Origin: a virus
Lineage: Duplodnaviria > Caudoviricetes
DNA: 25,706 nt
IMG/VR virus record: IMGVR_UViG_3300020045_003397
Span: 1-25,706 of that record
Direction: 5' to 3' (one strand)
Shown: positions 11,143 to 25,706 of the stretch, piece after piece
Numbering within the stretch: the stretch's first letter is position 1
Layout of the letters: the number at the start of each line of letters is the position of its first letter
Position numbers and translations under genes: made by a program
The notes under the pieces: generated by a model
Told to the model about the DNA's origin: nothing
Database searches by the model: none
The model's input: only the letters and a program-made list of their open reading frames with translations

Positions 11143-11241
11143 TGATATATGTCAATGGCTGATTGATAAGTATCATTGTAAATTAGTATAAATGTCAGCG
11201 GTAAATATTAGGATTGTATATACAATTGGTTGTACCTTTAC
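11143..11241 (+). promoter_or_regulatory. Early promoter/operator element, copy 1
   Basis: TGA-N6-TCA-type boxes at 11143, 11164 and 11186. Palindrome ATTGTATATACAAT at 11213-11226. TACCTTTAC (-7-like) at 11233. Confidence 0.7.
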
Positions 11242-11271
11242 TTCATCAAACAACAACTAAAACTAAACAAT

Positions 11272-12502: not shown

Positions 12503-12673
12503 ATGAATACCCAAGACTGGATTTGCCCGAATTGTGGTTCAATATGGGGGTTCGATGAATGGCAATTTGAGCAATGTGATTGCTGCGGATATCCCGAATG
12601 CAAAGATTATAATGAAGATTTTGAATCGTATCAGGATATAGAGTTTGATAATCCATACAGTAGTATTTATTGA
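12503..12673 (+). CDS. Small zinc-ribbon-like acidic protein (56 aa; absent from ORF track)
   Basis: MNTQDWICPNCG...CDCCGYP...SSIY* by hand translation. Confidence 0.6.
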   Translation: MNTQDWICPNCGSIWGFDEWQFEQCDCCGYPECKDYNEDFESYQDIEFDNPYSSIY

Positions 12674-12769: not shown

Positions 12770-12955
12770 ATGAAACTTGAAATCGTAAAGTACCAAAATG
12801 ACAAACTTGAAGACCGTTGGAAAATCACAAAAGACGGCAGTTTTATCAATCTTTATTCCGTTGAATCGGAGGCCGTAACTGCATTTGATAAGTTAGTCGA
12901 AAGGTTAAAAGAACCAAAACTTACAGAAACCATTATTAAATCTGTTGAGATATGA
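12770..12955 (+). CDS. Hypothetical protein
   Basis: 61-aa ORF after the promoter element. ATGA overlap with the next gene. Confidence 0.7.
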   Translation: MKLEIVKYQNDKLEDRWKITKDGSFINLYSVESEAVTAFDKLVERLKEPKLTETIIKSVEI

Positions 12956-13581
12956 CTAACATAACCAAATTTCATGGCAACCTGGAACGCCTTGTAAAAC
13001 AGGACAAAATTATGGTAGCTCTGAATCAGGAGCCGCCGCAGGAGTGGGTAAAGCAGCACCCGTATATCAAAGATTTCAACTACCTTCCGATTGAGCGTGT
13101 GGAATGGTTGCTTCGTACTTTCTTCAAAACCAACTACAAAATTGAAGTTATCAAGACCGGAACCATACTGAACGCAATCGAGGTTACAGTTAGGGTACAT
13201 TACCGCGATATTGAATCCGGCGAATGGATGTATCACGATGGGGTTGGTGCAAAGGAAATACAAACCACTAAAGGAAGCGGTGGCCTGAACCTTGATTTGT
13301 CAAACATAAATAGGGGAGCTGTTGAAATGGCACTCCCTATTGCTAAGACTATTGCAATTAAGGATGCATGCGATCACTTAGGCCGGATATTCGGGAGTGA
13401 CTTGAACCGTAAGGGGCAGATGACTTATGCCGAAGACAGCAGGCTTCAGCCGATTGATATTAATAGCGAATTGTTCGTGAAGATGAAAGAGGCGGTTAAA
13501 AAAGGTACTCATACCATTGAACAGATTGAAAAGAAATATAACTTAACTGATGAGGTAAAGGAGGCGTTAAATGGAAAATAG
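12952..13581 (+). CDS. Single-strand annealing recombinase, Rad52/Sak-like
   Basis: YLPIERVEWLLRTFF, HDGVGA and AKTIAIKDACDHLGRIFGSDLNR motifs. Sits next to an exonuclease. Confidence 0.7.
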   Translation: MTNITKFHGNLERLVKQDKIMVALNQEPPQEWVKQHPYIKDFNYLPIERVEWLLRTFFKTNYKIEVIKTGTILNAIEVTVRVHYRDIESGEWMYHDGVGAKEIQTTKGSGGLNLDLSNINRGAVEMALPIAKTIAIKDACDHLGRIFGSDLNRKGQMTYAEDSRLQPIDINSELFVKMKEAVKKGTHTIEQIEKKYNLTDEVKEALNGK

Positions 13582-13747
13582 TGGAAGTATTATATACACA
13601 ATAGATTTTGGCGGAAATGTAAAAGCTAAAATTGAAGTACATGATAATAGCATTACTGTATTAAATGCTATGAATGGTTACGGTGACAATATAAGTCTTG
13701 ATGAAATAGATATTTCATTTATAATTAATCCATCTGAACTCTTATGA
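13571..13747 (+). CDS. Small hypothetical protein (58 aa; absent from ORF track)
   Basis: MENSGSIIYTIDFGG...NPSELL*, overlapping both neighbours. Confidence 0.6.
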   Translation: MENSGSIIYTIDFGGNVKAKIEVHDNSITVLNAMNGYGDNISLDEIDISFIINPSELL

Positions 13748-14334
13748 AACAATTTAAACTTCGTGCCTCCGCCGCTGGCACTCTAATACCAAACGGCAAA
13801 GGATCACTGCTATCAGTGGGTGGCAAAACATACCTGAAAGAGTGGGTAATATCACAACTCTACGGCGTTGAAAAGCAGATCAAATCAAAGTATATTGATA
13901 AGGGTGTGTTTCACGAAGATGAGGCAATAAGCCTGACCGTTAAAATGTTGAACATTGAATTTGCTTTGAAAAACGAGGCTAATTTTGAAGATGAGTATTT
14001 CACAGGAACGCCGGATATGATTCTGACGGATTCAATCATTGATATTAAGAACTCGTGGGATTGCTTTACATTCCCGTACTTGGAAACTGAAATACCAAAT
14101 TCAGATTACTTCTATCAGTTACAGGTTTATATGCACCTGACAGGCAAACGCAAAGCACAATTAGTTTATGTATTGTTGGACACTCCAGCGACACAATGGG
14201 ATGCCGGTATTATTTATAACGTGCCGGATAAAATGAGAATAAAGACGTTTGACGTTGAGTATGATGCTGAGGTTATCCAGCTACTGCAACGTAAAGTAAT
14301 TGAAGCAAGGGAATTTATTAACACTTTAATCTAA
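13744..14334 (+). CDS. YqaJ/lambda-exonuclease-like PD-(D/E)XK nuclease
   Basis: LRASA, GTPD...IIDIKNSW and YQLQVYM motifs. Confidence 0.85.
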   Translation: MKQFKLRASAAGTLIPNGKGSLLSVGGKTYLKEWVISQLYGVEKQIKSKYIDKGVFHEDEAISLTVKMLNIEFALKNEANFEDEYFTGTPDMILTDSIIDIKNSWDCFTFPYLETEIPNSDYFYQLQVYMHLTGKRKAQLVYVLLDTPATQWDAGIIYNVPDKMRIKTFDVEYDAEVIQLLQRKVIEAREFINTLI

Positions 14335-14410: not shown

Positions 14411-14905
14411 ATGGAATGTAAATGCGGATACACAACAGAAAATAAAAAATCTTTTTCTAATCATATTAGATACGGATGTAAGTCTAAAGAGATATTATAC
14501 TTTTGTTTGCAATGTGGAGAAAAATTACCTATTAATATAAAGCCTAAAGATGGTAGGAAATTTTGTAATCACAGTTGTTACGCTATGTGGAGGGGTAATA
14601 ATTTAAAAGGCAAATACGCTCCTAATTACATAAATGGTAAATGCAATGAAAATTTATTGTTTAGAGCCTCATATGAATATAAGTATTGGAGGTTGTCTGT
14701 TTTTAAAAGAGATAATTTTACATGCGTTTTATGTGGGGACAATTCAGGAGGTAATCTTCAGGCGCATCACATAAAGGATTTTGCATTATTCCCAGAATTA
14801 AGATTAGACATAAATAACGGACAAACACTTTGTAAAAAATGTCATAAAAAAACAGAAAATCATGGATTTAAAAAATCAAACACAAAAAAGAGAAATAAAG
14901 TTTAG
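14411..14905 (+). CDS. HNH endonuclease with N-terminal Zn-binding motifs
   Basis: RDNFTCVLCG...AHHIK...NGQTLCKKCH. Flanked by 14-bp direct repeats. Confidence 0.9.
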   Translation: MECKCGYTTENKKSFSNHIRYGCKSKEILYFCLQCGEKLPINIKPKDGRKFCNHSCYAMWRGNNLKGKYAPNYINGKCNENLLFRASYEYKYWRLSVFKRDNFTCVLCGDNSGGNLQAHHIKDFALFPELRLDINNGQTLCKKCHKKTENHGFKKSNTKKRNKV

Positions 14906-15287
14906 AGGTTTACTTACACATAGTAAACTTACTGTGATTGGGAACCTAATTATTAGTAAAAACGGTAAACCATATATAATTCCTGCTGAAGTTTTTGAGC
15001 CAGATGGACACCATTTAATAATTGATTCAGATAATCCATTTTGGGTAGAACCTGAAACAATCTGCCAATTCACCGGATTATTAGACAAATCAGGGCTTGA
15101 AATTTATGAGGGTGATATAATTGACCACTATGCGCTACATGGATATGTTGTTTATGAAAACGGTATGTTTTCAATAAGCAGCAATGCAAACACACAATTC
15201 TGTAATTGCAAACAGCCTTTAGCATATCACGATGTTAGCGAAATGGAAGTTATCGGAAACATTCACCAAAACCCATCAATGTTATGA
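14862..15287 (+). CDS. YopX-family protein
   Basis: REIKFRG...PETICQFTGLLDKSGLEIYEGDII...EVIGNIHQNP. Confidence 0.88.
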   Translation: MDLKNQTQKREIKFRGLLTHSKLTVIGNLIISKNGKPYIIPAEVFEPDGHHLIIDSDNPFWVEPETICQFTGLLDKSGLEIYEGDIIDHYALHGYVVYENGMFSISSNANTQFCNCKQPLAYHDVSEMEVIGNIHQNPSML

Positions 15288-15550: not shown

Positions 15551-15647
15551 TGAAAGGCCGCATCACACGCCGTGCATTTGGCGGCTTGTAACTAACGTTT
15601 GAAGGCTATGATTAGTTAACATTTTACCTCAAAAAACTCAAAATACA

Positions 15648-15860
15648 ATGTTAGAAATACCTTTTAATTGGGACTGTGAAAAAATTAGTTGGGTAAGGGG
15701 AAGAATTGCAAGCAGAATGATATGTGAGAACGCTAAATCTATTGAAGATTCTGAAATATAAAGAACGCTTATTGGCACTTGCTTGCCTACCAGGCTAATT
15801 GAAATTGCAAAAGAATGGAAAAGAGAAAATTATAATCAAATGCTAAAGGAAATAATATGA
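15648..15860 (+). pseudogene. 70-codon ORF interrupted by one in-frame TAA (15759-15761)
   Basis: The frame resumes after the TAA and ends at a TGA overlapping the next ATG. Confidence 0.5.
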
Positions 15861-16090
15861 AATACGGAATATTAAAAATAGGCGATGTTGTAAAATATAC
15901 TTCAGAGGCTAAACAAAGAATGCCGACAATCACAGATGATAAAGAATATACGGTTACAAATATTGACTGTGATGATTCACATGCTGACGGCATAAAAGAG
16001 GATGGTGACGAATGGTACGGAGCAGATATTTATTGGCTAAATAGAATTAGGAAAGGTAGTACGGCTGCTCACAAAACTAAAAAATGTTAA
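15857..16090 (+). CDS. Hypothetical SH3-like protein (unit 1 cargo)
   Basis: LKIGDVVKY...KEYTVTNID. The stop codon lies inside the right repeat arm. Confidence 0.65.
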   Translation: MKYGILKIGDVVKYTSEAKQRMPTITDDKEYTVTNIDCDDSHADGIKEDGDEWYGADIYWLNRIRKGSTAAHKTKKC

Positions 16091-16204
16091 TTAATTATAG
16101 CCTTTGTTAGCAATCAGTTGGCTATATTCTTGTCAGATACGATGCGAAGTTCGAGGATTGTAACTGCTGTTTTAAAAGACTTCGTAACAGCCAATTGTTG
16201 CTAA

Positions 16205-16817
16205 CGAATATAGCTAAATGCAGTGCTACCCTATGTTAAATTGAAAACGAAAAGTAATAGTTTAATATTTTTAACACGTACAACATGAAAAACGAACTTG
16301 AAAATTTAAAAGCAAGCATTCATATTATTATTGATTTTTTCGATAAAAGCAAACCGAGAAGTATTGAAAAAATGCACGAAATGATTGATGAAAAAATTGA
16401 TTCTTTCGTAAATGAGAAATTATTATCAATCATGTGGAATAAGTATTCAGAAACAAAACCAACAGAATCGGGTAGATATTTAGTTGTACATTATGGTAAA
16501 GTATGTACTGCCACATGGAATGAAGAATATAAGGCGTGGGATGTCAAATGGATTGAAGATGAAGATGGTGATATGATAGATATTGTTTATAATGAATCAA
16601 ATGTAACATACTGGTGTAAACTACCAGATAAACCAATTTGATCGCCTTGCAAATAAGGTGAACAAAGTATAAATGCTCGTTAACAAAAAATATTAAACTA
16701 TGGAATGTATGTTGCTAATTTTCATTGAGGTTGTGAACAGCGCATTGCATTTAGCTGATGTTATGCGCAGTTGTTTTATTAATCTTTCTTGGCTGCTAAT
16801 TTCACAATGGCGCATAA
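16205..16817. repeat. Cassette unit 2 (613 bp)
   Basis: Stem B 16212-16226/16742-16756. Inner perfect 16-bp IR 16257-16272/16686-16701. 59-bp stem A 16760-16818. Confidence 0.8.
16285..16641 (+). CDS. DUF551-like phage protein (unit 2 cargo)
   Basis: WNKYSETKP...GRYLV...VTYWCKLPDKP pattern. Confidence 0.7.
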   Translation: MKNELENLKASIHIIIDFFDKSKPRSIEKMHEMIDEKIDSFVNEKLLSIMWNKYSETKPTESGRYLVVHYGKVCTATWNEEYKAWDVKWIEDEDGDMIDIVYNESNVTYWCKLPDKPI

Positions 16818-17420
16818 CGGATACGCACATGCACAGGGCTACACATATTGAAATTGAAAAACAAAGTAAACAATAAATTAATTTTTTAACACGTCTTACC
16901 ATGAACAGAGAAATTAAATTCAGAGGTGCAAGAGTAGCAAATAATCAAATGATTTATGGCTATTTTGTAGTAGCTCCAAATGGAGAGCATCGCATTTATA
17001 TGCAGCCGTTCCCCGAAGCAACAAATAATACTTATTATAGCGTATGGAATAATTCTGTTAGTCAGTTTACAGGGCAACAAGATTGTAACGATAAAGATAT
17101 TTATGAGGGTGATATTATAAAAACCGGAACAGATAAAGTGATGTGTGTAAGATGGAGCCAAAAACATGCATCATTTGTGATTGATCGTGAAGGCTGGGCT
17201 TTTCTGCATTATTTTGGAGAAGCGTTTGATGGCAAAGATTGCGAGGTAATTGGCAATAAATTCGAGAATCCGGAATTGCTCGTTAACAAAAATTAATTTA
17301 TTGTGATGATAAACGACCGCTATTTTATTGTTGCTGTGAACTATGCCTTGTGTATGTGCGGTGTTATGCGCCGTTGTTCCTTTTCTTCTTTTTGGCTGCT
17401 AACCTTACAATGGCGCATAA
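16818..17420. repeat. Cassette unit 3 (603 bp)
   Basis: Stem B 16824-16839/17345-17360. Inner perfect 17-bp IR 16870-16886/17288-17304. 59-bp stem A 17363-17421. Confidence 0.8.
16901..17296 (+). CDS. YopX-family protein (unit 3 cargo)
   Basis: MNREIKFRG...SQFTGQQDCNDKDIYEGDII...EVIGNKFENPELL. Confidence 0.88.
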   Translation: MNREIKFRGARVANNQMIYGYFVVAPNGEHRIYMQPFPEATNNTYYSVWNNSVSQFTGQQDCNDKDIYEGDIIKTGTDKVMCVRWSQKHASFVIDREGWAFLHYFGEAFDGKDCEVIGNKFENPELLVNKN

Positions 17421-17880
17421 CAGACCGGCGCTATATGAAGTTTATTCTTTTCCCTTAATCAACTCAAACATCAAAAAAAATAAAATTATGGCACTAACTA
17501 CCTACATGAATATTGGAGAATTAGAAAATTACTCCAAAATTGAAGATAAAAATTTGGATGAACTATTTCAGGAGGTAAGAGCAATATTCCCTCAATATTA
17601 TGTTCAGGAATATTTATTTACCATTTCGAGTGGTTTTTGGAAAACCGAAAAGGTGAGAAGATACACGGTTTATAATGATTTAGGTTGTGAAGCTCAAATA
17701 TTGATGTTACCAGGCCAGTATATTACCGCTTCTGGACTAATAGCATTCTTTTTAGGGCTAATAAACGGAGCAAAGAATAAAAGTATGGCTGCTCAGATCG
17801 CTCAAAAAGAATAAATTACATATAGCGCCTGTTAGTTACAGGCCGCATCACACGCCGTGCATCGGGCGGCTTGTAACTAA
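17421..17880. repeat. Cassette unit 4 (460 bp)
   Basis: Stem B 17427-17451/17805-17829. 51-bp stem A 17831-17881. Confidence 0.8.
17488..17814 (+). CDS. Hypothetical protein (unit 4 cargo, 108 aa)
   Basis: ATG 17488 follows an A-rich leader. The track's longer version runs through repeat arms. Confidence 0.7.
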   Translation: MALTTYMNIGELENYSKIEDKNLDELFQEVRAIFPQYYVQEYLFTISSGFWKTEKVRRYTVYNDLGCEAQILMLPGQYITASGLIAFFLGLINGAKNKSMAAQIAQKE

Positions 17881-18507
17881 CAGATGGCGCTATACGCAGG
17901 CCGACCCGTCAAACTATCAACTAAATCACTCAATTAACTAACCGGCTTGCGTACAGCGTTTGTTAGTTGTAGTAAAAAACCGGACATCAAAATACACGTT
18001 TTACCTAATAATTGAAAAACTATGAAAACAAGAGAAGAATTTTTATTACCAGTAATGCCAATAATATTAGAGAGCAAAATTTCGAGAAAAGAAAAAACAG
18101 ATTTACTGTTGGGTTTAATGCATGACTACGCTATTGAGTATGCAACGAAATTTGTAGAATTTCTAATTGAAAATTCAGATGTTAAAAATAAAAAAGACAA
18201 AACAGTAATCACGATTGACTTTGATAAATTAAAAGCAATTGATTTCGATAAATATATCAACAATAACGAATATCCAAAAGCGAATTTAAGAGAAACCGTA
18301 GTAATTGATCATTCCGGAGTAAATAAATTAAAGCCACAAGAGTGGACATTTACATCAGGAACCGGAGTTGTCGATAGCTACGAAACTAAATATAAAAAGT
18401 GCATTGAGGTAATTAAGAGGTTCGATCCTGGAATTATTGGCATGTACGATTTGTAGCTGGTCGCCGAACCCGCACGTTAACTCGTCCGGTTTGTTTATTA
18501 CAACTAA
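17881..18507. repeat. Cassette unit 5 (627 bp)
   Basis: Empty stem B 17886-17903/17943-17960. Stem A 17962-17985/18484-18508 encloses the cargo. Confidence 0.8.
18022..18456 (+). CDS. Hypothetical protein (unit 5 cargo)
   Basis: 144-aa ORF with an A-rich leader. Confidence 0.7.
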   Translation: MKTREEFLLPVMPIILESKISRKEKTDLLLGLMHDYAIEYATKFVEFLIENSDVKNKKDKTVITIDFDKLKAIDFDKYINNNEYPKANLRETVVIDHSGVNKLKPQEWTFTSGTGVVDSYETKYKKCIEVIKRFDPGIIGMYDL

Positions 18508-19115
18508 CGAATGGTGCTATATATCAGGCCGGCACGAATAACTAAAAGGCTTGTAAACTAATGAACTACCGGCTTGTATATAGCACGTGTTAGGCACTGT
18601 AATTAAAAAACGCTCAAAATACTAATTCTAAAAATTGATAAAATGGCATTTGAAAACGGAAACAAGGCAGACGGAAAACACTACTGGTTAACTCCTCCTG
18701 ATCTTATGAAACAACTAAATGATGAATTTAACTTTGATTTTGATCCTTGCCCTTTCCCGAAGCCTGATGATTTTGACGGCCTGAGAATGGAGTGGGGACA
18801 AAGAAACTATGTTAACCCTCCTTTTGGATCTTATACATGTACAGTTGATGGCAAAAAGAAAGGTCCAACAGCATGGGCAAGGAAATGTATTGAGGAATAC
18901 AAAAAAGGTAAATTAGTTGTACTGGTTTATCCGATTGATAAATGGGTGCTAATGTTACTTAGCGTATTAGGTGCGGAAGTAAGAAATTTAAAGGATGTAA
19001 GATGGCACTCAACCGAGGATAACGAACAAGGCCCCGGAACTGGCCGACATGTGGCAATGTTTATTTTAGATCCGCAGAATGCTCGTTGACCATGTTTTTT
19101 AATTATTGTGCCTAA
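18508..19115. repeat. Cassette unit 6 (608 bp)
   Basis: Empty stem B 18514-18532/18569-18586. Stem A 18589-18611/19094-19116 encloses the cargo. Confidence 0.8.
18643..19089 (+). CDS. Phage DNA N6-adenine methyltransferase, Dam-like (unit 6 cargo)
   Basis: WLTPPDL...FNFDFDPCP...DGL..EW...YVNPPFG motifs of the short phage Dam family. Confidence 0.85.
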   Translation: MAFENGNKADGKHYWLTPPDLMKQLNDEFNFDFDPCPFPKPDDFDGLRMEWGQRNYVNPPFGSYTCTVDGKKKGPTAWARKCIEEYKKGKLVVLVYPIDKWVLMLLSVLGAEVRNLKDVRWHSTEDNEQGPGTGRHVAMFILDPQNAR

Positions 19116-19316
19116 CAATCTGCTATACGCAACTAAACAATTACTTTAACATCAACTTGTTTACTTATAGCAACTTAGCGCAAATAATAACCACATAAAA
19201 TTAACCGAAAAGATGCCCGAAAAATAGGCGCAACATTGAGAAATCTCAATGCAAACAACAACAAATGTCATTACCCAATCAGAACCAATTACCGATAAAT
19301 AGACTAATTTAGAGCC

Positions 19317-23884: not shown

Positions 23885-24372
23885 CCGACCGCCTCGCCCT
23901 CAAACGCCTAAAAGACATCGCAGCAACCAAGTTCAAAGAAGAACATCCGGAAAACCCATTTCCTGAGAGCTGCATACATCAGTACAACCCATCGAAAGCC
24001 AACGGACTAACGCGCTGCATAAAGGACTTCATAGAGTTCAACGGCGGACAGGCTGAACGGATATCGGTAACCGGACGCATGGTTGACAACACAAAAGTAG
24101 TAACCGATGTAATGGGACACCGCCGAATAGTTGGATCGGTAAGCTATCAGAAGTCTTCAATGACACGTGGCAGCGCCGATATATCGGCAACTATCAACGG
24201 ACGTTCTGTAAAGATCGAAATAAAGATCGGTAAAGACAGGCAGTCAGACGCTCAAAAGAAATATGAACAATCTATTGAACGTGCCGGAGGGATTTACCTG
24301 ATAGTACACACTCTGGCTGATTTCGTGAACTGGTGGGACAGTCAACAGACTCATGGGGACTTGTTCAGTTGA
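23878..24372 (+). CDS. VRR-NUC-like nuclease / Holliday junction resolvase
   Basis: GSADI...VKIEIKIGKDRQSDAQKKY...AGGIYLIV. Confidence 0.82.
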   Translation: MLTDRLALKRLKDIAATKFKEEHPENPFPESCIHQYNPSKANGLTRCIKDFIEFNGGQAERISVTGRMVDNTKVVTDVMGHRRIVGSVSYQKSSMTRGSADISATINGRSVKIEIKIGKDRQSDAQKKYEQSIERAGGIYLIVHTLADFVNWWDSQQTHGDLFS

Positions 24373-24447
24373 CATATCTCAATCGAAACAAGTATAAGTA
24401 TCATTGATGAAAATTAGGATTGTATATACATCATGTATTACCTTTAC
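24370..24447 (+). promoter_or_regulatory. Early promoter/operator element, copy 3
   Basis: TGACATATCTCA at 24370, GTATAAGTATCA at 24392, ATTAGGATTGTATATACA identical to copy 1, TACCTTTAC at 24439. Confidence 0.7.
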
Positions 24448-24488
24448 ACAATCAAACAAACAATACTAACAATTTAAAACTTCGAAAA

Positions 24489-24662
24489 ATGGACACAACA
24501 ACTTATAACAGGAACAAAGTAACAATGACAGACGGCAGTGTTTATAATATCGGACTTGGCATTATTACTACACGGCAAAAACACCACATAGAGAAAACAT
24601 CAATAGCTGGGTTTAAATATTATGTAAACCCATTTAATGGATTTGCATATAGGACAGTATAA
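24489..24662 (+). CDS. Small hypothetical protein (57 aa)
   Basis: ATG downstream of promoter copy 3. Confidence 0.55.
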   Translation: MDTTTYNRNKVTMTDGSVYNIGLGIITTRQKHHIEKTSIAGFKYYVNPFNGFAYRTV

Positions 24663-24983
24663 AGATACTGTTCCTGCGAAGTCAGGCGGAAGTAGGTATG
24701 CTGTTCTAATTGCATTAACCTTAATATCATGCCTCCATCCATTGTTAATTTTGCCGGATTTAATAAGCATTTCATTTTCCTGTTCCACTGTCATTGCAGA
24801 AAGTGGATAAAGGATCGGTTTAACTTCTTGTACTTTAAATTCCCACCCATTTGAACCTATTACTGGGGATTCGCTTTGGGACGATTTTGTAATCCTAGTA
24901 TTATTTCTTATTTTTTCAGAATAATCTTCGTAAAACCTGCACCCCAAATACAAGTGTGCTACATCTTTAAATTTTGTTTCCAT
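24600..24983 (-). CDS. Hypothetical phage protein whose C-terminus runs through the inverted repeat
   Basis: HLYLGC...VKPILYPLSAMTVEQ phage-type motif. LPPDFAGT is encoded by the IR. Confidence 0.65.
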   Translation of the reverse strand: METKFKDVAHLYLGCRFYEDYSEKIRNNTRITKSSQSESPVIGSNGWEFKVQEVKPILYPLSAMTVEQENEMLIKSGKINNGWRHDIKVNAIRTAYLLPPDFAGTVSLYCPICKSIKWVYIIFKPSY

Positions 24984-25673
24984 GATTTTATAATTTCGTA
25001 TTAATTAATTCATCCTTGTAACTTCTAAAATGCCGTGTCGGGTTCATCATTCCGCAGTAGTGCGATTCGAACCGCCGGTAAACAATCAACAGTGTTGAAT
25101 CCGAACCATATTTGTTTTTCATGTATTCGTCTGATTCTACATTGCGCTTTGAATTTAGCACCGTTGCATGGTCGCGGTTTGTCATTTTCCCAATGTCACC
25201 CAAAGACAACATACTATACCGGCTTAGGCACGTCTGCATGGCCTGCCTGATTCGTGTCGCGTCCTTATGTCTGCCTCGTTTACAAACGGCCTCAAACGTG
25301 GTGTTGAAATAGCTGCTTATGATTATACTGCAAGCTGTTTCTGGGGTGAGTTGGATAATGCCTGGGGCAGAGAAGGGGGTCATGTAATGGTTTAAATAAA
25401 TTTCGTATTGTTCTTCAGTTGAAATTAAACTTATTTGGTTTGGCTGTGCTATCCTCCAGTTGATAAAATTAACAACTTGATTTTTTGAATAGTCTTCCAT
25501 CAATTTAACAATTTTGTTTATTGTTGGAAATTCCGTAAAGTCTTTTAACTCTTCTTTTGCTGTTTCGTATGCTGTTTTCATACCTCCAAAATTACTAATT
25601 AATCCCTAAATTGATTCTCTTGTATCAAATAGTGTTGTACGGTTATCGCTTCCGCCTGACTTCGCAGGAACAG
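24668..25673. repeat. 1006-bp segment bounded by perfect 25-bp inverted repeats
   Basis: CTGTTCCTGCGAAGTCAGGCGGAAG at 24668-24692 and its exact reverse complement at 25649-25673. Confidence 0.9.
24988..25581 (-). CDS. Protein with a DnaA C-terminal-like HTH domain
   Basis: RIRQAMQ...SLGDIGKMTNRDHATVLNS resembles the DnaA domain IV signature (RDHTTV). Confidence 0.75.
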   Translation of the reverse strand: MKTAYETAKEELKDFTEFPTINKIVKLMEDYSKNQVVNFINWRIAQPNQISLISTEEQYEIYLNHYMTPFSAPGIIQLTPETACSIIISSYFNTTFEAVCKRGRHKDATRIRQAMQTCLSRYSMLSLGDIGKMTNRDHATVLNSKRNVESDEYMKNKYGSDSTLLIVYRRFESHYCGMMNPTRHFRSYKDELINTKL

Positions 25674-25706
25674 GATCGTTATTCTAAAACAAATCTTTCT
25701 TCGCAG

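Follow-up and report, generated by a model that had tools for sequence, protein, structure and literature searches.

Integron-like cassettes of a phage carry genes in either hairpin loop and reuse related ends around unrelated cargo

A stretch of 25,706 nucleotides from a virus of the Caudoviricetes (Duplodnaviria; IMG/VR record IMGVR_UViG_3300020045_003397, positions 1–25,706), hereafter the window, contains an array of six integron-like cassettes with one small gene each, all on the + strand. A cassette consists of a TAAC..GTTA hairpin and the next GTTA..TAAC segment. The gene may sit in either part, and four of the six genes (units 1–4) are placed within the loop of the hairpin site itself. 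The original prediction held that three fixed scaffolds had been loaded with different fragments. Scaffold reuse is real, as related ends bracket unrelated cargo here and in further phages. The picture of three fixed scaffolds that receive fragments is nevertheless an oversimplification: the scaffolds are neither fixed nor confined to three families, and both outer and inner arms, as well as the loop and junction motifs, are variable and mix between cassettes. On balance, we lean towards the view that the ends recur since recombination just inside them replaces the interiors, while selection for folding keeps the paired arms and template switching extends them.

The array is bounded on the left by a GTTA..TAAC hairpin remnant without its left arm (15555–15596; 95% identity to 17840–17881). 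Unit 1 (15593–16109) is a loaded TAAC..GTTA hairpin with arms of ~30 bp. Inside are an ORF broken by a stop (from 15648) and a second ORF of 77 aa (15857–16090) whose final codons and stop lie within the right arm, and cassette 1 is completed by an empty 100-nt GTTA..TAAC segment (16106–16205). Unit 2 (16202–16763) is a loaded hairpin with outer arms, a leader and an inner inverted repeat of 16 bp (16257–16272 pairing with 16685–16701), which encloses a gene of 118 aa without a family (16285–16641). The A hairpin, an empty 59-nt GTTA..TAAC segment (16760–16818), completes cassette 2. The loaded hairpin of unit 3 (16815–17366) likewise has an inner inverted repeat (16–17 bp; 16871–16886 pairing with 17288–17303) and carries a YopX gene (16901–17296), the last codons and stop of which belong to the scaffold; a further A hairpin (17363–17421) completes cassette 3. 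In unit 4, also a loaded hairpin (17418–17834), the scaffold holds the stop and last nine codons of a 108-aa gene (17488–17814), and the cassette is completed by an empty 51-nt GTTA..TAAC hairpin (17831–17881). Cassettes 5 and 6 are each opened by a B hairpin, an empty 88-nt TAAC..GTTA site (17878–17965 and 18505–18592). Unit 5 (17962–18508) is a loaded GTTA..TAAC segment with arms of ~24 bp and a gene of 144 aa without a family (18022–18456); unit 6 (18589–19116) is of the same form, with 24-bp arms and a DNA methyltransferase gene (18643–19089) whose stop codon lies inside the right junction motif. The array ends at a half-site, TAAC followed by a left arm only (19113–19135), with no recombinase gene after it.

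The motif positions and spacings of the original prediction were recovered wherever it gave them. GCTCGTTAAC ends at 16684 in unit 2 and 17287 in unit 3, 76 nt before the GTTA at 16760 and 17363, and TGTGAAC occurs at 16732 and 17335 in the same units. CAAAATAC lies at 17988 and 18615 in units 5 and 6, 26 nt past GTTA, and GCWCGTTRAC starts 36 and 35 nt ahead of their core ends. Units 1 and 4 have AACTCAAA 39 and 40 nt past the core and GGCTGCTCA 43 and 44 nt ahead of GTTA. Two details had to be corrected: CTAC and TAT are separated by three letters, not two, in the leader of unit 3, and the B hairpin measures 88 nt from TAAC to GTTA, not 90 bp. The division into three discrete families did not hold, since GCWCGTTRAC was found in units 2, 3, 5 and 6 and CAAAATAC in unit 1 too, so that the motifs cross families.

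End similarity was tested against dinucleotide shuffles. The significance that had been expected was strong for units 2 and 3 (z 6.2 left and 5.7 right over 90 nt; 0/400 shuffles) and for the right ends of units 1 and 4 (z 5.3, with 3.6 on the left, over 50 nt; 0/500 shuffles). It was modest for units 5 and 6 (z 3.0 left, 3/500 shuffles; z 2.5 right, 6/500), though their B hairpins are clearly related (z 6.7, compared with 8.7 for the A hairpins; 0/1000 shuffles). The right ends of units 1/6 and 4/6 likewise reach z 3.2 and 2.6. When loaded segments of other phages served as the comparison, the left end of units 1/4 (12/38 as high) and the right end of units 5/6 (38/120) were unremarkable, and the remaining four unit ends stood out (0/38, 0/38, 0/38 and 1/120 as high).

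The paired cargos are unrelated, as had been proposed: their middles are unrelated in DNA and in protein comparisons (lowest blastp E between units 0.5), which led us to reject a common ancestor for the paired cargos. The assignments of unit 3 to YopX (PF09643, E 4e-17) and of unit 6 to a methyltransferase (PF05869, E 0.002; phrog_111, E 3e-13) are supported. A "DUF551-like" gene in unit 2 is not, as Pfam gave no such match at E up to 5. Rather than 0.3–0.5 kb fragments, the cargo consists of whole ordinary phage genes. Methyltransferase cargo has scaffold-free relatives; the nearest viral relative of the unit-6 gene is one of these, and its gene family occurs within a different scaffold at another locus (L394). 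Among INPHARED phages only the cargo genes gave matches, and Rfam gave chance-level matches only.

Other phages also have related ends around unrelated cargo, namely the pair L084/L086, two cassettes of Polaribacter phage P12002L and the group L071/L227/L252/L133. The stretch 16815–17421, which is unit 3 with its A hairpin, recurs as a single unit with TAAC at both ends in record G001. There the ends are 96% and 94% identical, the YopX interior has 31% amino-acid identity and no blastn match, and the identity breaks off at the start codon on one side and the NPELL codons on the other, so that only ~5 and 12 nt of coding identity are retained. Methyltransferase cassettes keep ~60–95 nt of near-identical coding ends around interiors of 29–67% amino-acid identity. 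A pairwise comparison of ends and cargo in 148 loaded segments gave 83 pairs that match by 85% or more at both ends, and every one of them had homologous cargo; only 5 of these are at least 90% identical. The 83 are non-independent, as nearly all trace to the YopX pair and a single cluster of 27 methyltransferase segments. Unrelated cargo was seen only at 65–80% end identity (2/3 pairs in the 75–85% bin and 15/34 in the 65–75% bin). Near-identical ends thus hold divergent homologous genes, and more distant ends hold unrelated genes.

Scaffold ends were also searched for in phage and metagenome data, and real loci came from G001 only. Exact-pattern scans of viral contigs gave real loci in 1/8, 1/10, 0, 0/10 and 2/2 cases, all from that record, and a degenerate leader pattern hit only two records, neither new to the set. 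A genome scan (3 matches) and a metagenome scan (25 matches) returned chance matches only, and the array detector gave 0 chains in all of them. As the exact-pattern scans were nearly empty, scaffolds of the B type and of units 1/4 were found in the window only. No array was seen on a host chromosome in these scans, and a pair of Bacteroidota plasmid loci that encode a related recombinase lacked a chain. The expected empty scaffolds exist in part: many empty outer hairpins carry the unit-2 arm, but an empty inner scaffold was not found.

A second, inner inverted repeat closing on the cargo was detected in 28/69 segments (0/600 random and 0/598 mixed-end controls), and in 31/94 after loci were added (controls 0/1,198), with the inner arm 47–58 nt from the core. 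These repeats are segment-specific and are found inside coding sequence too: three different ones lie entirely within methyltransferase coding sequence, 37–48 nt from the core, and sister cassettes are without them. The hairpin moves together with its downstream segment, with boundaries at TAAC; among 250 hairpin pairs at least 88% alike, the downstream flank was common to 114 and the upstream flank to 1. In GTTA..TAAC segments the first 9 bp pair perfectly in 100/123 cases. An unpaired spacer of 3–4 extra bases follows TAAC, and this asymmetry matches the gene strand in 104/111. As for extrahelical bases in the L box, the second B hairpin of the window has a single bulge and the first has none; the GTTA arms have a fixed mismatch at position 11 instead.

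No recombinase was recognized in the window, which has neither a PF00589 match nor a match to the recombinase of its relatives; the record is 68% complete. Arrays of relatives end at a short Xer-like recombinase. Four uncultured records and the phages Freya_10 and Ingeline_1, examined by eye, have their last TAAC (CAAC in one) ~35–55 nt ahead of a recombinase of 264–271 aa, and genes run towards it. The half-site at 19113 and those ahead of the relatives' recombinases are candidates for an attI-type position. Four array-adjacent recombinases of 264–269 aa match TIGR02249 in two pieces at 153–158 bits, below the cut-off of 265, and none of the NCBIfam thresholds is reached.

An integron cassette consists of a gene followed by its own attC site and is transcribed away from the integrase, and the attC hairpin has a short terminal loop without genes. 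Here, in contrast, the hairpin precedes the segment with which it travels, the genes point towards the recombinase, and 4/6 window hairpins are 417–562 nt long and gene-bearing. An integron has its IntI integrase gene beside the array; the window array has none, and the array-adjacent recombinases of relatives fall far below the integron-integrase cut-off. IntI integrases have a specific insertion in the catalytic domain (PMC8138268). Promoter directions in integrons are given in PMC8876359. The likeness to attC sites and CALINs is that an AAC triplet and its GTT complement close the hairpin in 12/12 window segments, that a spacer is unpaired and that one strand folds better. The box consensus RYYYAAC / GTTRRRY (Nivina et al. 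2016, PMC5027507) is mostly absent, with RYYYAAC in 1/7 and GTTRRRY in 1/6 cases in the window and in 13 and 15 of 119 segments overall. As in integron cassettes, the start and end of one segment are complementary, the cargo is gene-sized and promoterless-looking, and an array may terminate in a half-site next to a tyrosine recombinase, as it does in the relatives (PMC5027507; Loot et al. 2017, PMC5371416). The differences are that the cassette ends pair over 14–30 bp, that the genes lie on the better-folding strand and that the recombinase has 264–271 aa. CALINs have been reported in phages, and that of P12002L (Qi et al. 2023, PMC9892861) has the same alternating array as the window, methyltransferase cargo and no integrase in the array. 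Its P12002L_attC1 oligo has the TAAC..GTTA hairpin form, with a left-arm start that corresponds by eye, rather than by mapping, to our 125-nt class. That paper treats the P12002L sites as ordinary attC, and the passages covered contain nothing on extended arms, loop genes, inner repeats, cargo swaps or a cognate recombinase; attC1 is the only one of six sites without shown IntI1 recombination, and attC2, which recombines, differs in sequence. Searches of the open-access literature gave no account of such wiring or of genes loaded into loops.

We propose that an excised single-stranded circle would fold as a single long stem capped by a loop on either side, and both loops could therefore tolerate cargo. 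A short Xer-like recombinase, supplied in trans here, would mobilize complete cassettes through cleavage of the gene-coding strand at TAAC. A phage annealing protein might swap interiors at conserved gene ends or at short loop-motif matches, which would place the same ends around different genes. Repeated swaps would leave ends of earlier cargo behind, and the scaffold would therefore grow inward and form families. Outside the array, 12952–14334 (+ strand) encodes a candidate Rad52/Sak-like annealing protein and an exonuclease, possible agents of such swaps; the former is a lead only, as PF04098 was on 11% of members of the fourth-ranked cluster. Rad52-like recombinases of phages exchange sequences that are short and diverged (De Paepe et al. 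2014, PMC3945230), and such relaxed recombination fits the homolog swaps; alone, it leaves the self-complementary ends, the fixed cores and the first capture of an unrelated gene unexplained. The paired arms are probably kept by selection for folding and lengthened by template switching at quasi-palindromes, which perfects inverted-repeat arms, coding sequence included (PMC3820800, PMC8604942); those studies are on yeast, and the link to arms 300–1,000 nt apart is our own inference. Several observations weigh against this proposal. Homolog swaps leave the first capture of an unrelated gene unaccounted for, and no intermediate was found. The ~5 and 12 nt kept in the YopX swap are short for homologous recombination with a scaffold-free donor, and the junction motifs and inner-arm position are more regular than random accretion predicts. 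The window itself lacks a recombinase.

The alternative nearest to the original prediction, which we regard as possible but doubtful, is a dedicated process in which an enzyme, perhaps the Xer-like recombinase on secondary sites, inserts complete genes into empty hairpins at their tips. It would also duplicate a short motif and either generate the inner repeat or introduce it. Empty hairpins do fall into size classes (~46–60, 85–92 and 112–131 nt) with a loop repeat at 18–19 and 37 nt, and when the ends are joined at the repeated motif, units 1 and 4 give 86 and 88 nt, the empty B length, and unit 6 gives 59 nt, the A length. Cargo is cut near the gene ends, with the stop codon supplied by the scaffold in units 1, 3, 4 and 6. 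L084 and L086 have an identical 35-nt right end and are 90% alike over the first 30 nt, yet carry unrelated genes and different inner arms. Left and right junctions have a longer common substring within than between segments (4.25 versus 3.65 nt, p 0.003), in a test of 24 hand-placed junctions that is confounded by relatedness, with direct repeats that are short and degenerate. A YG-type motif occurs at 16/24 right junctions, against 22% of cargo windows. With a loop-motif matrix from other phages, units 2 and 3 score poorly and the unit-1 right junction is weak (6.2; cargo-window 95th percentile 5.3), so the identity of the window junction motif with the loop motif is a resemblance, not a result. 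Against such loading, unrelated cargo was seen in 0/83 near-identical pairs, ~2.9 Mb of scanned sequence gave no empty arm-motif-arm site within an array (a single match lay outside any array), and inner repeats that lie within coding sequence need no new insertion to arise. Neither the near-identical pairs nor the scans for empty inner scaffolds thus support the loading of unrelated DNA in one step. The broader claim that the arrays record de novo cassette genesis seems to us just as doubtful; it holds that whole genes are inserted into either loop of a two-loop single-stranded cassette with a fresh inner repeat each time, the empty 50-, 88- and 125-nt hairpins and the long-armed and nested units being successive stages of one IntI-free gene-capture cycle.

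It is improbable that the cassettes arose separately and that their common motifs are functional features of recombination sites under selection. The crossing of families by GCWCGTTRAC and CAAAATAC and the two unit ends no closer than segments of other phages fit that account, as does the strong site-level constraint at position 11 of the GTTA arms, which is mismatched in 96/100 segments (G opposite T in 74). Units 2 and 3, however, are more alike at both ends than any of the 38 outside comparisons and have related A hairpins, and ends 85–100% identical around interiors 29–67% identical are incompatible with convergence, which refutes it for the homolog swaps. We consider an RNA role of the arms equally improbable. 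In that account they form stems that close each gene for processing or translation, and nothing but ordinary homologous recombination between repeats reshuffles the units. In its favour, the coding strand has the more stable fold in 99/110 hairpins and 71/79 long-segment ends, the longest ORF begins inside the 125-nt hairpin in 53/64 cases, and PF00589 was found in only 9/50 and 2/37 array-bearing records, most of them incomplete. The boundaries at TAAC, the alternation of TAAC and GTTA cores along the arrays and the half-site array ends before a tyrosine recombinase argue against an RNA role; adjoining arms are too unlike for simple homologous shuffling, and promoter-like (17 versus 16.8; sigma-70 type only) and terminator-like (2 versus 2.0) matches are at chance level.

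To our knowledge, the origin of the genes in integron cassettes is unexplained. The present arrays place stages side by side in an integron-like system, namely empty hairpins, loaded hairpins and identical ends around swapped homologs. Their layout suggests that a whole gene can ride in the loop of a recombination hairpin and that ordinary phage genes, DNA methyltransferases prominent among them, are being packaged as cassettes. As the parts are small (a ~270-aa recombinase and sites of 50–125 nt) and the cultured phages P12002L, Freya and Ingeline have known hosts, excision, swapping and loading are directly testable. Swapped interiors with kept ends, if true, would show how such cassettes obtain their cargo.

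The array between positions 15596 and 19116 consists of 12 chained segments in which TAAC..GTTA alternates with GTTA..TAAC, every segment having an inverted repeat of its own that closes it (z 3.5-7.1 relative to shuffles). All motifs and spacings of the original prediction were found where it had described them. Of its paired scaffolds, units 2 and 3 show a clear relationship at both ends, units 1 and 4 show one chiefly on the right side, and that of units 5 and 6 is modest; the two A hairpins (empty, 59 nt) and the two B hairpins (empty, 88 nt) are strongly related within each pair. The interiors of paired units are unrelated, as had been proposed. Three separate scaffold families could not be upheld, as motifs cross between them; in each of the six units, the right-hand junction carries a (T/C)GC(T/A)C(A/G) motif. 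Unit 1 holds two ORFs, one (15648-15860) broken by a single in-frame stop and then a 77-aa gene.

A viral collection was scanned with the unit-2 outer arm, giving 119 loci spread over 41 of its 64 parts, a set biased to this arm, to which we added regions of the source records, the phage record G001 and Polaribacter phage P12002L. A search for alternating self-complementary segments detected 62 chains in 2.9 Mb and none in 255 kb of chance loci or in 25 shuffled 20-kb pieces; distinct chains numbered 78 after the final additions. Chains L113, L136 and L306 (duplicate or mixed orientation) and the isolated matches L082 and L106 were left out before pairs were counted.

The unit-3 hairpin and the A hairpin next to it recur jointly in G001, with similarity ending at TAAC on both sides. 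Hairpin pairs at least 88% alike (250 non-independent pairs from 50 anchored 125-nt hairpins) share the downstream flank in 114 cases and the upstream flank in one. Both observations argue that a cassette is a hairpin with its downstream segment; the same reading explains the position of A behind units 2 and 3 and of B ahead of units 5 and 6. There are exceptions, in which near-identical hairpins precede unrelated segments with different arms. Folded computationally as circles, the window cassettes form a single stem that runs unbroken through the core and is capped by a loop at both ends, a fold that does not fix the register because the other register would fold alike. The coding strand is the better-folding strand in 99 of 110 hairpins. 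At the far end of G001 (L029), about 21 kb from its first array, a second A hairpin is followed by a short hairpin.

Empty scaffolds, which the original prediction had proposed to look for, are usual at the outer level: the hairpin closed by the unit-2 arm is mostly empty and about 125 nt long, and the next gene starts within it in 53 of 64 cases. Empty hairpins fall into size classes of about 46-60, 85-92 and 112-131 nt. Units 1, 4 and 6 have a short repeated motif; when the two ends of each are joined there, at hand-chosen points, the products measure 86, 88 and 59 nt, a suggestive match to the sizes of B and A hairpins.

Units 2 and 3 also contain a second inverted repeat of 16-17 bp closing on the gene, absent from the original prediction; the two repeats differ in sequence and each is self-complementary. 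Of 69 loaded segments at least 260 nt long, 28 have such inner repeats, seven of them from one methyltransferase lineage, compared with 0/600 and 0/598 controls, and in 31 of 94 segments after later additions. Segments of either type contain them, often at a distance of 47-58 nt from the core, and the genes that they surround are unrelated (N6/N4, MT-A70, D12, C5 and Dam methyltransferases, SpoU, PAPS reductase, YopX and unknowns). Three different inner repeats lie within methyltransferase coding sequence and are missing from sister cassettes, so inner arms can arise after gene capture. In L139, a 1012-nt GTTA..TAAC segment, two nested inverted-repeat pairs surround a C5 methyltransferase, as if arms had formed in two rounds.

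Comparison of 148 loaded segments gave 83 pairs in which left and right ends are each at least 85% alike; nearly all come from a single methyltransferase cluster, to which the YopX pair is added. In every one of the 83 the cargo is homologous, with protein identity of at least 90% in only five. Cargo is unrelated in two of three pairs at 75-85% end likeness and in 15 of 34 at 65-75%. In the YopX pair, the start codon and the last conserved codons are where identity stops; between methyltransferase partners it extends from the ends 60-95 nt into the gene. The best case of unrelated cargo is the locus pair L084/L086, whose right ends are identical over 35 nt, whose inner arms differ and whose genes are unrelated.

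Judged from homolog termini (a single homolog for unit 4), units 4 and 6 carry complete genes that stop at the beginning of the scaffold. Among the best 80 of 183 viral relatives of the unit-6 methyltransferase, two are enclosed by TAAC/GTTA segments: L394 belongs to the same array system in another scaffold, its leader resembling the one in units 2 and 3, and the other resembles a classical cassette by eye. The closest of these 80, at 90% amino-acid identity, is scaffold-free, and its similarity to unit 6 begins shortly before the start codon and ends at the last conserved codons. C-terminal tails or flanks of the homologs P0073, P0077, P0078, P0083 and L377 look like read-through into what we take to be classical attC sites; members of this family may be carried by true integron cassettes as well.

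On balance, we favour, with moderate confidence, stepwise interior replacement within a folding-constrained cassette as the mechanism. A Xer-like recombinase supplied in trans would likely move whole cassettes, relaxed recombination acting at conserved gene ends or at short matches would likely exchange interiors, and template switching would likely perfect new arms. A study of relaxed phage recombination (PMC3945230) provides a basis for the swaps, and the window's candidate annealing protein and exonuclease are possible agents. A dedicated loader that inserts the cargo would better explain the regular junctions and size classes than stepwise replacement; however, it predicts empty inner sites, of which our search found none, and one-step pairs, which are missing. 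We regard it as rather unlikely. All enzyme roles named here are putative.

Read by eye, four uncultured records and the cultured phages Freya_10 and Ingeline_1 (no chain was called by the detector in these two) have a last core some 35-55 nt ahead of a same-strand tyrosine recombinase of 264-271 aa. The four array-adjacent recombinases tested fall under every NCBIfam cut-off. The window array ends in a half-site resembling the pre-recombinase core of these relatives, with no recombinase gene there, and none of their type was found in the window, whose 25.7-kb record is 68% complete (CheckV). Polaribacter phages Freya_1 to Freya_10 (H20-H30) are near-identical isolates of 44.0-48.9 kb with differing DNA ahead of the recombinase; these differences may reflect assembly ends or cassette gain and loss.

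The array lies in the early region of the window, which also carries tail, lysis, exonuclease and primase genes. The host is probably a member of the Bacteroidota, judging from phages of Polaribacter and Cellulophaga, which have the same array type. A second YopX gene (14862-15287; 28% identity to that of unit 3) lies immediately before the array and lacks a scaffold. A 209-aa protein (12952-13581), a candidate Rad52/Rad22, adjoins the exonuclease. A 37-bp inverted repeat, 92% complementary (24656-24692 and 25649-25685), flanks the window's sole minus-strand ORFs, one of which encodes a DnaA-type helix-turn-helix; the enclosed segment is possibly inverted or inserted DNA. Intergenic 91-nt direct repeats of 73% identity (11163-11253 and 24369-24459), with partial copies at 12669 and 19235, are possibly early promoters.

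The closest published record is the P12002L CALIN (Qi et al. 2023); the hairpin of the array type in that phage was the only site for which recombination with IntI1 was not shown. We found no description of the array wiring or of loop loading in the open-access literature, which our search covered. The phage array works like an integron but is no member of that class, because it has no IntI, its sites mostly depart from the attC box consensus, its genes run in the reverse direction, and they sit within hairpin loops.
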